Assembly: GCA_043816965.1 (NCBI GenBank)
Contig: JBDRHK010000103.1
Span: forward strand, 1-23,157
Reading direction: 5' to 3'
DNA: 23,157 nucleotides
Source: Candidatus Iainarchaeum sp.
GTDB taxonomy: Archaea > Iainarchaeota > Iainarchaeia > Iainarchaeales > JAFCCJ01
Shown piece after piece: positions 12,746-16,004 of the stretch; the stretch's first letter is position 1; each line of letters begins with the position of its first letter. The notes below the pieces were generated by a model. The model ran no database searches. It had not been told where the DNA came from and worked only from the letters and a program-made list of their open reading frames with translations. The translations under genes were made by a program, and so were the position numbers.

Positions 12746-13021
12746 TTAAGCCCTCCTATACCCTGCTGTTGCCGGGCCTACGATTTTTCTTCGCTTCTTC
12801 CGAATTCTCCTCATTTCATCGCCTTGGAGTTTTCCGATCCTTCTTCCAAACAAATCATTGTACCTGCTAATACCTGGTGCATTTCCAAACCCAGCTCTTT
12901 CAGCTTCCAGGTAAAGATTGGCAAATTTGCCCTGTGATTCTCGGGAGCCTGTTTCCAAAAAAACAGCCAATGCCTTTCTTAGTTCTGAACGAAACCATTC
13001 CTCACTATTAATTGGTGCCAT
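12746..13021 (-). CDS. hypothetical basic protein (91 aa) inserted between thiolase and DUF35
   Basis: ORF exactly fills the gap, has an AGGAGG RBS and 1-nt spacing at both ends. Confidence 0.7.
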   Translation of the reverse strand: MAPINSEEWFRSELRKALAVFLETGSRESQGKFANLYLEAERAGFGNAPGISRYNDLFGRRIGKLQGDEMRRIRKKRRKIVGPATAGYRRA

Positions 13022-13034
13022 TCTAAGCCCTCCT
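12747..13034 (-). repeat. 11-bp direct repeat AGGAGGGCTTA flanking the 91-aa ORF
   Basis: + strand TAAGCCCTCCT at 12747-12757 and 13024-13034. Confidence 0.75.
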
Positions 13035-14183
13035 CAGAATATGGATTGCGCAGGTTGCGCCGCTTCCGCCGATATTGTGGGTAAGGCCTATCTCCGCGCC
13101 CTTTACCTGCCTCTTGCCGGCATTTCCCTTCAAATGCTCGTAAATCTCCGCCGCCTGCTTTATTCCCGTTGCACCAACAGGATGGCCTGCTCCCTTAAGG
13201 CCCCCGGAAGGGTTTATTGGAATGCTCCCATTCAATTTAGTTTCCCCTCTCTCAACAGCTGCCCCACCTTCCCCTTTCTTGAAAAATCCCAAATCCTCTA
13301 TTGCGAAAATTTCCGCAATGCTGAAACAGTCATGGACCTCGGCAACATCAATATCCTTTACTCCAATCCCTGCCATCCTATATGCGCTTTCGGCGGCAAA
13401 CTTTGTTGCCGCAAGTTCTGTCAGTTTCTTTCTCCCGGCAAGTGCAAGCGTGTCAGAGGCCTGTGCTGAAGCGATTATTTCAATAGGATTATCAACCAAT
13501 TCTCTCGCCTTTTTGGTTTCGCACAATAATACAACAGCTGCCCCGTCTGAAATCGGCGAGCAATCAAGCAATTTCAAGGGGGAGGCAATATACCCTGATT
13601 TCATAACATCATCAACTGTAATCTCCCTGTGGAAATGCGCATTTGGGTTAAGCATTGCATTTTTGTGGTTTTTCACAGAGCACATTGCCATCTGCTCCTC
13701 AGTGGTGCCAAAATCATGCATATGCCTTCTTGCCAGTAAAGCATAAAGTGCTGGAAATGTCGCCCCATGGAAGAGCTCAGTTTCCTGGTCGCCTGCACCG
13801 CCAAGCGCAAATGCCGCCCTGTCAGTGCTTATCTCAGTCATTTTCTCAACACCTGCAACTGCAACAATATCGTGTGCGCCTGAAGCAACAGAAAGGAATC
13901 CTGCCCTCAAAGTAACACCGCCTGAGGCGCATGCCGCCTCCAGCCTTGTGGATGGGATTGGATTCAGGCCTAATTGGTCGGCAATCAATGCACCAATATG
14001 CTCCTGGCCAATAAACCTTCCTGAAGCCATGCATCCGCCATAGGCAGCCTCAATATCCCCGCCCTCAATTCCGGAATCATGTATTGCCTTTATTCCTGCC
14101 TCCGCTATAAGGTCCCTGAAACTTTTATTCCAGTACTCGCCGAAGCGGGTGAGACCAGCGCCGATTATCGATACACTACGCAC
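13023..14183 (-). CDS. acetoacetyl-CoA thiolase (archaeal acetyl-CoA C-acetyltransferase)
   Basis: EAACASG, AEVHDCF, GHPVGATG, HNIGGSG motifs; start set at GTG 14183 after GAGGTG RBS (14191-14196). Confidence 0.95.
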   Translation of the reverse strand: MRSVSIIGAGLTRFGEYWNKSFRDLIAEAGIKAIHDSGIEGGDIEAAYGGCMASGRFIGQEHIGALIADQLGLNPIPSTRLEAACASGGVTLRAGFLSVASGAHDIVAVAGVEKMTEISTDRAAFALGGAGDQETELFHGATFPALYALLARRHMHDFGTTEEQMAMCSVKNHKNAMLNPNAHFHREITVDDVMKSGYIASPLKLLDCSPISDGAAVVLLCETKKARELVDNPIEIIASAQASDTLALAGRKKLTELAATKFAAESAYRMAGIGVKDIDVAEVHDCFSIAEIFAIEDLGFFKKGEGGAAVERGETKLNGSIPINPSGGLKGAGHPVGATGIKQAAEIYEHLKGNAGKRQVKGAEIGLTHNIGGSGATCAIHILRRA

Positions 14184-15332
14184 CCTCAGCCACCTCATAA
14201 AAACTATTTGGATCTAATTTATTTTCAAGAATTAGTTTTCTTTCCTGAATGGTAGTATGTGGCGGACAAAACCCAAATTTCTTCCATACTAAATATTTTG
14301 TCATATGTTTTGGATTCCGAAAAGAGATTTTATCCATCCATTTTTCTAATTGTTTATAACCTATAATTTTAAGGGCATATTGCTTATTCTTTTCTTTTCT
14401 TATCTCAACTCTTTTAATTGGCTTAAATCCCATTTTCTTAAGTATGCTTGCTGTTTGATCAATTATTTTTTCTGAATTTAAACTCCCAGCTATGTAAGGG
14501 TAATAATGCCTATTCTTATGTTTCTTTTGGAAGGACAAGCTAAAATCAGTATCAAATAATCCTCTAATAAAAGAGCCCTTTATCAACTCGTTTCCAGACT
14601 CAAGAATTTGCGCAGGTATTTCCACAATACTCGCTTTTTTGCCCAGGGGGAATCCCAGGCATTTATTCTTATAAGTGTAGATTGCTTTTGAAGAGGCTAC
14701 AAAACCAAATGTTTTGCCCCCAGATAACTTACGCAATTTTATATCTAGATTATATATTCTTTTGAAAATTTTATGAACATAATCTTTGTAGAAATCTGTT
14801 TCTTGGTTTGCGTCCCCAGCTAAACAGTAAAGATATCCTGTCTTCTTTTTTGCGTAAAGGGAGCCATCTCCAGCATGCCATCCTGCTTCTTCGGCAACTA
14901 ATTCATTAATTTTTTCTGGGATGGTTACTCCCCTAGAAATATCCTGAAGACTAAATTCCACTCCCTTAAAAGAAATTTTTTCTTTGTTACATTTATATTT
15001 CCCAGATTTCCTTTTTAAATCCTCCAAAGAATCAAAATACAAATTTATAATTTTGTGTGATTTATAGCCAGATTTCTTAGCGATTTCTCTAGCAGAAGAT
15101 CTATGTGCCAATTCTTTGGTTGCTTCAATTAGTTTTTCTTGTGGAGATTTTATCTCAATACCAATCGAGCCAAATAGATTCTTTCTTGTCCCAAAATAGT
15201 AATTAATGGCTTTTCTTGATTTAAACCCTGCGTCTTTAGCTATTTTACTCGAAGACGCTCTCAAGCCATTTTTCTTTGCAGAAGATTGTATCAATTGTTT
15301 AGCATTGTCCATAAAATAAGAAGAATTTACGT

Positions 15333-15348
15333 TATTTAAATTCGTTTC
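15333..15348 (-). promoter_or_regulatory. putative internal BRE/TATA promoter of the endonuclease
   Basis: GAAACGAA-TTTAAATA with the TATA starting 28 nt upstream of ATG 15312 (leaderless geometry). Confidence 0.55.
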
Positions 15349-15364
15349 TAGAGGGTAGGTTTCC

Positions 15365-15399
15365 GGTGCCAACTCCCCAATAATGCTTACGCTTCTCAT
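15365..15399 (-). pseudogene. remnant 5' end of thiolase gene
   Basis: ATG AGA AGC GTA AGC ATT ATT GGG = MRSVSIIG, the same peptide as the thiolase start at 14183-14160; GGAGG RBS and ATGA coupling to the upstream gene. Confidence 0.75.
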
Positions 15400-16004
15400 T
15401 TTCTCGTCCTCCAATAAACAAAGCCATAGGAAACTGCAAGAATAATAATCAAATCAACAAAAAATGCAATAAAATCAGGATTGGGACAGGGGAATAAAGT
15501 GGCAAGATTAGAGGCAGGTGGTGGACATACACCATTTACAAGATATTTTAGTGGTAATCCTCTATCAAACTCATTCCCATAAATAAATGGCGAAAGAAAA
15601 TGCAATACCAAAAGTGTCCCAATTGCCAAAGCAATTGCCATCTTCAGCCGTTTTCTGTTATACAGAATACAACTCCATAGATAAGCACTAAAAATCGAAA
15701 AAACAATAAAAAGCCCTAGGTTTAGTGGAGAAGAAAAATATAAATAACTAAACAAGTCAATCTTAAAACTAAATAAAAGTATGTTTAGTATTATGGTGCT
15801 TAAGACCCAAAAAATAAAGAAAACAAAATTTATTATCAGCATACTTGATAAACTCAAAATAACGCATGCCCCATAAGCCGGCTCTCTGCACAAGTCAGTA
15901 TAACTCACTAGAAAAAGGACATTAGCTAAAACAATAATCAAAGCACTAAGAATAATTTTTTCCCGGTTGGGCCTGAAAAATTCCTTCCAATCCATTTCCA
16001 TCAC
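15396..16004 (-). CDS. hypothetical multi-pass membrane protein (about 200 aa)
   Basis: About five hydrophobic segments, two Cys-pair loops; overlaps hmgS stop; AT-rich. Confidence 0.8.
   Translation of the reverse strand: MMEMDWKEFFRPNREKIILSALIIVLANVLFLVSYTDLCREPAYGACVILSLSSMLIINFVFFIFWVLSTIILNILLFSFKIDLFSYLYFSSPLNLGLFIVFSIFSAYLWSCILYNRKRLKMAIALAIGTLLVLHFLSPFIYGNEFDRGLPLKYLVNGVCPPPASNLATLFPCPNPDFIAFFVDLIIILAVSYGFVYWRTRK

Follow-up and report, generated by a model that had tools for sequence, protein, structure and literature searches.

The window analysed here is a 23,157-nucleotide stretch of the archaeon Candidatus Iainarchaeum sp. (assembly GCA_043816965.1, contig JBDRHK010000103.1; genome code G000), and on its minus strand it carries mevalonate-operon genes in which the 5' end of the acetoacetyl-CoA thiolase gene is present twice, on either side of an open reading frame (ORF) for a LAGLIDADG nuclease. 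We consider it likely that a homing-endonuclease cassette replaced the thiolase start, so that the native start lies stranded upstream and a respelled start serves the gene. The original prediction, made from the letters of the window, had already proposed that the nuclease inserted at the 5' end of the thiolase gene and rebuilt its start with a recoded copy, and this proposal is supported by an allele without nuclease in a genome of the same genus and by the recurrence of the arrangement in five genomes. The G000 assembly is fragmented (1.34 Mb in 109 contigs).

The upstream copy (15399-15376) reads ATGAGAAGCGTAAGCATTATTGGG and the downstream copy (14183-14160) reads GTGCGTAGTGTATCGATAATCGGC. 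With GTG taken as a start codon both encode MRSVSIIG, and they differ at 10 of 24 bases, just as first described. In a six-frame translation of the whole G000 assembly (2,686,682 residues) the peptide RSVSIIG occurs in two places only, which are the two copies in the window; since it is found nowhere else in the assembly, chance is excluded as the source of the duplicated start. The translation signals attributed to the two copies were also confirmed: the upstream ATG overlaps the stop codon of the preceding membrane-protein ORF (aATGA), and a GAGGTG ribosome-binding site lies within the end of the nuclease ORF, 7 bases 5' of the thiolase GTG. The stop codon of the nuclease falls within the thiolase codons CGT AGT. 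Coordinates of all features are collected in Table 1.

Empty and occupied alleles of the thiolase start

We searched for the thiolase in 41 genomes (G000 and 40 relatives), and found it in 29, with the 5' end visible at 27 loci. The start was empty at 25 of these loci and occupied at two (G012 and G009). In G001, which belongs to the same genus as G000, the HMG-CoA synthase gene is followed by a 96-residue membrane ORF and the thiolase, with no nuclease. The thiolase start of this genome (GTGAGAAGCGTAAGCATTATTGGGG) is identical to the upstream copy of G000 at 24 of 25 bases, and the downstream copy does not match it; relatives without the nuclease had been expected to resemble the upstream copy, and G001 does. 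G012 and G009 have an orthologous nuclease at the same place, with a native-spelled ATG AGA AGT upstream and ATG CGT AGT at the working start.

Using the C-terminal 261 residues of the nuclease as query, we then covered 196 genomes of the order and identified family members in 60 of them. Close relatives (50-62% identity in this C-terminal search) were found, besides the window, only in G133, G012, G009 and G173, all four directly 5' of the thiolase; the G173 nuclease is broken by stop codons and a frameshift. When the search was extended to 215 genomes of the class (E <= 1e-55), no genome was added to these five. The occupied alleles (5 of 196 genomes of the order) belong to five different families and always lie at the thiolase start. 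For three of the occupied genomes, empty alleles are present within the same genus: in G001 for G000, in G004 for G173, and in G131, G134, G135 and G136 for G133, these last being all four other genomes of genus g66 with a visible start. A stranded native-spelled start was observed upstream in all four alleles whose upstream flank is visible (G000, G012, G009 and G173), and the working start downstream is spelled CGT AGT in every one of the five occupied alleles; in each of these the thiolase is intact and a GG-rich Shine-Dalgarno-like stretch lies 5-10 bases before the working start. The five nucleases are 48-63% identical to one another. A metagenome scan with the ortholog alignment yielded 33 loci, among which only one (L069) was of the thiolase type; its near-identity to G009 means that it does not count as a further independent occurrence. 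This is how a homing element is expected to be distributed: scattered genomes are occupied, always at the one site, and close relatives have empty alleles.

The spelling of the start separates the two kinds of allele. All five working starts read RTG CGT AGT GTN TCN RTA. A search pattern derived from these same five alleles, RTGCGTAGTGTNTCNRTA, was found only at the five occupied starts and in none of the 191 other genomes of the order. The native pattern (RTGAGAAGYGTNWSNRTNRTNGG) was found once each in 43 of the 196 genomes, namely in the stranded copies of G000 and G012 and in 41 further genomes, which on this spelling we take as empty alleles. C4, T6, T9 and A18 are common to the occupied starts and set them apart from the consensus of 19 empty alleles; exceptions among the empty alleles are G017, which reads CGT AGC, and G035, which reads CGC AGC.

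The first 48 bases of the thiolase gene are also less conserved between occupied and empty genomes of the same genus than the rest of the gene. Identity is 32/48 (67%) against 651/792 (82%) for G000 and G001 (binomial P 0.007), 32/48 against 631/789 for G173 and G004 (binomial P 0.02), and 31/48 against 673/792 for G133 and G135, that is, 65-67% in the first 48 bases and 80-85% in the rest over the three pairs. This difference argues for a short foreign tract at the 5' end of the thiolase gene. The sequence ACCCGCTTCGGCGAG (TRFGE) is common to G000 and G133, its closest nuclease relative; G001 and most others encode TKFGE. The cassette would then travel with roughly the first 50 thiolase bases, as do the mitochondrial elements that carry a foreign C-terminus (see below).

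The nuclease, its expression and its relatives

Judging from profile matches and a structure model, the ORF between the two copies is a single-chain (two-motif) LAGLIDADG nuclease. The Pfam family LAGLIDADG_3 matches its second half-domain only, and marginally (24.3 bits, cut-off 22.5), and a profile of the four orthologs matches a VMA intein with endonuclease (E 1.3e-4) and PI-PfuI (PDB). An AlphaFold2 model built on a 28-member alignment has a mean pLDDT of 88.4, with values below 50 for residues 1-24, MRSVSIIG included. In this model residues 26-131 are helical, and residues 166-400 form two alpha/beta half-domains with the expected helices and strands. With the model as query, Foldseek matched 112 PDB chains at E <= 1e-3; I-Tsp061I aligned with a TM score of 0.76 over the target (E 5e-7), and I-DmoI with 0.72-0.79 over the target. 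The free-standing LAGLIDADG gene that the first reading recognized is thus borne out by Pfam, the AlphaFold2 model and Foldseek alike. The two motifs, AGWHAGDGS (Asp178) and IRGLFDTDFS (Asp283 and Asp285), are invariant in the four orthologs, as is GYKSHKIIN in the N-terminal region, which has a weak match to TetR_N (E 0.0018, below the cut-off).

Following the stranded copy we find GAGTTGG-CACCGGAAACCTAC, 14 bases, TTTAAATA, 20 bases, and the ATG of an internal start (MDNAKQ, 15312). The original prediction had read GGA GTT GGC ACC (GVGT) at this place as a thiolase-like remnant. We reject this candidate: the letters in question are GAGTTGGCACCGG, the beginning of a promoter-like motif, and they recur verbatim at a nuclease paralog on contig C66. 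With a degenerate pattern we identified 29 copies of the motif in G000 (e.g., C22:30201+, C66:622+ and C50:9163-), with the consensus CACCGGAAACCYAC followed after about 10-14 bases by an A/T-rich box. An ORF of at least 50 residues lies within 150 bases of the motif in 28 of the 29 copies, and mostly begins 48-59 bases after it. Pfam on 20 of these 28 ORFs gave LAGLIDADG_3 in six (five genes and the MCM intein), and otherwise PIN (2), MazE, NurA, RibD_C, radical SAM and DUF7718. That the motif is confined to a mobile element was considered and rejected, as it also lies 5' of MCM, NurA, RibD, radical-SAM, PIN and MazE-type genes. It is a general promoter-like consensus of G000 and not thiolase sequence, and the GVGT remnant therefore falls. 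A hairpin-like repeated sequence precedes several copies of the motif (on C21, C5, C57, C22 and C50).

The CACCGGAAACCTAC/TTTAAATA cassette in the window may act as a promoter, and the stranded copies of G012, G009 and G173 likewise have CAYCGG, an A/T-rich box and an internal ATG after them. The stranded ATG is in frame with the nuclease in all four alleles, without a single stop codon over spans of 29, 38, 26 and 26 codons, and the eight alternative frames of the stranded segment contain 1-5 stops each. This arrangement points to two putative expression routes: on the operon mRNA, ribosomes would begin the nuclease at the captured thiolase start codon, and a transcript from the element's own promoter would give the form that starts at the internal Met.

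More distant members of the nuclease family are found at tRNA genes. Of 29 loci fetched, 25 were not linked to a thiolase, and at all 25 ARAGORN predicts a tRNA gene within 65 bases of the end of the nuclease ORF; the partners are mostly tRNA-Arg(TCG), met head-on at its 5' end, tRNA-Ile(GAT), arranged tail-to-tail, and tRNA-His(GTG). Homologues had been expected to show duplicated starts. The expectation holds for the thiolase-linked nucleases and fails for their tRNA-linked relatives, upstream of which we found a duplicated tRNA end at none of the 25 loci (no match better than E 0.057), so that end duplication is specific to the thiolase clade. In a quick IQ-TREE phylogeny of 35 rows (the G173 pseudogene and the partial C66 paralog left out, and a stop in L049 read as X), the four intact thiolase-linked nucleases form a clade (SH-aLRT 99) that is sister (87) to nucleases linked to tRNA-His and tRNA-Leu. 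The groups linked to tRNA-Ile (94) and tRNA-His (100) are also clades. Nuclease clades follow their targets, as expected for site-specific homing enzymes. The tree suggests that the thiolase clade moved from tRNA genes to a protein-coding target, which would document a change of target class in a family otherwise locked to the ends of tRNA genes.

At loci L043-L068 the nuclease stop codon often lies within the first bases of the tRNA. In G000 itself a tRNA gene abuts three of the 13 LAGLIDADG genes (C86:8063-8902, C26:23468-24235 and C81:8596-9234); ARAGORN detects only 21 tRNAs in this assembly in all. The respelled start GCGTAGTGTA (14171-14183, minus strand) resembles the 5' end of a tRNA-His gene in G104 (GCGGTAGTGTAG, locus L058), whose neighbour is a sister-clade nuclease, and both are preceded by GGCTG. 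Two other tRNA-His genes examined did not show the resemblance, which may reflect chance or a trace of the cassette's origin.

Proposed mechanism, alternatives and known systems

In the mechanism that we propose, a cassette of about 1.2 kb would have inserted within the first ~25 bases of the single-copy thiolase gene. From left to right it would comprise the promoter-like motif, the LAGLIDADG nuclease gene with its helix-turn-helix-like N-terminal extension, a ribosome-binding site, and a respelled thiolase start of ~48 bases. The old start of the host would be stranded upstream and the respelled one would drive the thiolase body, with neither an intron nor an intein. The nuclease would cut the highly conserved native start (ATGAGAAGCGTTTCAATAATYGG...) in empty alleles, and repair of the break would bring in a copy of the cassette; occupied alleles would escape cutting because their start is respelled and their old copy interrupted. 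The overlap of stop and start codons, RTGCGTAG, would let ribosomes restart on the thiolase. We infer cleavage, immunity and mobility from the sequence. A fuller version would make the element an actively homing "start-codon hijacker" that cuts the first codons of the gene, takes over its start codon and operon coupling, and returns ribosomes via RTGCGTAG to a cut-resistant start, the clade having arisen from tRNA-linked relatives by a switch of target and each invasion leaving a foreign tract behind. We hold this version tentatively, doubting it slightly more than we trust it.

Several points weigh against the replacement of the start by a homing cassette. The nuclease transfers need not be recent, the proteins being only 48-63% identical. 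In four DNA sequencing runs, which gave short contigs only, we found no polymorphic population, no contig joining the membrane ORF directly to the thiolase, and no contig across the upstream junction. For the foreign tract, each pair contributes no more than 48 bases to the statistics. Selection for cut resistance need not explain the CGT AGT spelling, which could simply reflect how the first donor lineage wrote these codons or have been kept because it supplies the TAG stop of the nuclease, and the empty allele of G017 nearly has it (CGT AGC). Finally, the junction of the stranded copy varies among genomes (about 25, 35, 19 and 15-25 bases), a variation that decay or independent end-joining would explain as readily as clean homing.

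The divergence of the orthologs and the lack of polymorphism or of a joined form in those runs are also what would be seen if the insertion were old and immobile, having entered the thiolase start once, in an ancestor of the order, been inherited vertically and been lost many times, with the nuclease now inert or reused, for example as a regulator of the mevalonate operon via its helix-turn-helix-like N-terminus. LAGLIDADG folds do occur in regulators, WhiA is among the Foldseek matches, and the N-terminal repeats are weakly like TetR_N. We nevertheless regard this history as improbable. It would have to explain why so few genomes of the order (5 of 196) are occupied, in five families, with same-genus empty alleles in three genera. 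Loss by recombination between the two copies would often leave a respelled start, and none was found in the other 191 genomes. In G000 the stranded copy is still almost identical to the G001 start, which suggests that the insertion is young. The catalytic Asp residues do not vary, and the decay of the G173 copy, which a homing cycle would lead one to expect, argues against a needed regulator.

The upstream start is in frame with the nuclease, as it would be if the nuclease region were removed from the RNA (at a bulge-helix-bulge) or from the protein, so that the upstream MRSVSIIG became attached to the thiolase body, and a loose scan returned 58 helix-bulge-helix candidates against 40 +/- 8.6 in shuffled sequences. 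Splicing of either kind is nonetheless very unlikely. An intein is excluded because the ORF ends in a stop codon and contains no Pfam intein splicing domain, although the same library detects the MCM intein of G000. An intron is not needed because the downstream gene is complete and its start is conserved as protein: all five alleles retain the start codon, the ribosome-binding site and MRSVS(I/V)(I/V), and the changes fall mostly at third codon positions, which is unexpected for an intron. Furthermore, in G009 and G173 decay of the upstream copy sets in after codon 5-8, and no single strong or conserved bulge-helix-bulge candidate emerged under the loose criteria of the scan. The earlier claim that the gene needs no splicing stands, the downstream start with its GG-rich Shine-Dalgarno-like stretch being collinear with all relatives. 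As to an assembly artefact, or a local duplication that arose by chance and has nothing to do with the nuclease, the fragmentation of the assembly into 109 contigs could raise the suspicion; however, an artefact is excluded because the same architecture recurs in five separately assembled genomes and one metagenome contig, and a contig from run X1, which may be the source sample, spans the nuclease/thiolase junction (14095-14245) without a difference. We give this explanation practically no weight.

Among known systems, free-standing phage endonucleases such as Seg and Mob of T4 home without introns, cutting a conserved site in or beside a neighbouring gene and co-converting flanking markers. 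The start-replacing cassette proposed here resembles them in that a nuclease gene would spread by cutting a conserved neighbouring site in genomes that lack it. To our knowledge, phage homing genes sit between genes and need no rebuilt gene start, and duplication or respelling of a gene end is no part of their design. F-CphI is an example of collaborative homing (PMC6083498). The nuclease in the window shares with I-DmoI and I-Tsp061I the same fold (TM scores 0.72-0.79) and two LAGLIDADG motifs with acidic residues, at a sequence identity of 15-19%. Unlike these two enzymes, which are encoded inside bulge-helix-bulge introns of archaeal rRNA genes, it is free-standing and lies in a protein gene, and it is about twice as long, with an extra N-terminal helical region.

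The so-called mORFs of fungal mitochondria carry a foreign C-terminal segment and strand the native one downstream, as described for atp6 of Allomyces macrogynus and for atp6, atp9, cox2 and nad3 of Glomus (PMC3630166). As in the window, a free-standing nuclease gene (LAGLIDADG, and there also GIY-YIG) lies in a protein gene without an intron, the carried end is conserved as protein and diverged as DNA (64-81% in Glomus), and a native segment matching close relatives is stranded alongside; a horizontal origin was inferred there for the carried segment (PMC3630166). The thiolase alleles show the same combination of two copies of a terminal segment, the stranded one like that of relatives and the one in the gene diverged as DNA but conserved as protein. 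The differences are that mORFs replace the 3' end and leave the native end downstream, whereas here the 5' end is concerned, with start codon, ribosome-binding site and the first ~16 codons, and the native start lies upstream; that the host is an archaeal chromosome and an operon gene instead of an organelle; and that the nuclease frame here extends from the captured start codon to a stop that overlaps the new start. Partial replacement by a foreign gene has likewise been proposed for mobile insertions in mitochondrial genes that carry a diverged duplicate of part of the host gene. In those cases, however, the duplicate is a copy of the following exon inside annotated introns and not a gene start with translation signals, and the cDNA (complementary DNA) outcomes are mixed.

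Our search of the open-access literature (subscription papers lay outside it) turned up no report of a homing endonuclease in a thiolase gene, or of this design in archaea. The design has so far been described mainly for gene ends in fungal mitochondria, and the window would hold a mirror-image variant of it, at the 5' end of an essential lipid-pathway gene on an archaeal chromosome and with a captured start codon. If so, a homing endonuclease can colonise the very start of an essential archaeal chromosomal gene without an intron or intein, and such elements would write short foreign tracts into core metabolic genes. Their presence would account for annotations of a "duplicated N-terminus" or an "N-terminally extended nuclease" in small archaeal genomes. 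The native start (ATGAGAAGCGT...) and the CGT AGT start make a concrete pair of target and immune allele to test.

Gene neighbourhood and other loci

Table 1. Features of the thiolase locus in the window (positions are those of the 23,157-nucleotide stretch; aa, amino acids)
Feature	Position	Strand	Remarks
Small-membrane-protein ORF, native, outside the element	15396..16004	-	Homologous ORF at the same place in empty alleles G001, G027, G011, G035, G131, G134 and G135
Stranded native thiolase start, ATGAGAAGCGTAAGCATTATTGGGG	15375..15399	-	ATGA-coupled to the membrane ORF; in frame with the nuclease
Promoter-like cassette	15333..15368	-	CACCGGAAACCTAC (15368-15355), 14 bases, TTTAAATA (15340-15333); probable left end of the insert
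LAGLIDADG nuclease ORF, 407 aa from the captured thiolase start	14176..15399	-	Alternative start MDNAKQ at 15312 (378 aa); stop TAG 14178-14176
N-terminal helical region of the nuclease, residues 26-131	15007..15324	-	Two similar helix-turn-helix-like repeats of ~45 residues, ..GFKSRKAINYYF.. and ..GYKSHKIINLYF..
First LAGLIDADG motif, ..AEEAGWHAGDGS.., with Asp178	14860..14904	-	Gly173, His175, Gly177, Asp178 and Gly179 invariant in 28 family members
Second LAGLIDADG motif, ..FIRGLFDTDFS.., with Asp283 and Asp285	14539..14589	-	Gly280, Asp283 and Asp285 invariant in 28 family members
Shine-Dalgarno-like GAGGTG for the working thiolase start	14191..14196	-	Within the final nuclease codons; read from the sequence
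Replacement thiolase start, probably carried by the element	14136..14183	-	Begins with GTGCGTAGTGTATCGATAATCGGC; putative foreign tract of roughly 48 bases
Acetoacetyl-CoA thiolase, 386 aa, intact, single-copy	13023..14183	-	Pfam Thiolase_N and Thiolase_C_1; one match in G000

On the minus strand, genes for HMG-CoA reductase (18309-17044) and HMG-CoA synthase (17047-16001) precede the membrane ORF, the nuclease ORF and the thiolase, and are followed on the same strand, after the thiolase, by a 91-residue ORF, a DUF35-type OB-fold/zinc-ribbon protein and mevalonate kinase. In archaea, thiolase, HMG-CoA synthase and DUF35 proteins form a complex. We considered the low-GC (guanine plus cytosine) block at 14150-16000 as a single inserted island that would include the membrane ORF, and rejected it, as empty alleles have the membrane ORF too; the 3' end of this ORF aligns with G001.

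The membrane ORF, of 202 residues, resembles two fused copies of a unit of ~100 residues, which is present in relatives either once (96 residues in G001, 100 in G135) or twice in tandem (108 and 117 residues in G131). It matched no Pfam family above the cut-off. The 91-residue ORF between the thiolase and the DUF35-type gene (12746-13021, minus strand) is basic and has no Pfam match; at the same junction, relatives have other unrelated-looking ORFs (83 residues in G027, 392 in G012 and 441 in G014) or none.

Elsewhere in G000, the same promoter-like motif is followed 3' by an ORF of 819 residues (C15:44648-47104, plus strand; locus L111). It encodes a LAGLIDADG_3 region (residues 205-323) and a helix-turn-helix, and continues in frame and free of stops into an Obg/YGR210-like GTPase, whose own start (MQIGCVGKPSSGKST) is residue 422, after an AGGGG site. 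By its layout this locus seems to be another case in G000 of a nuclease placed where a protein gene begins. At a further locus (L109; C5:4372-7911, minus strand), the MCM helicase gene has an intein bearing LAGLIDADG endonuclease and HTH_3 domains.

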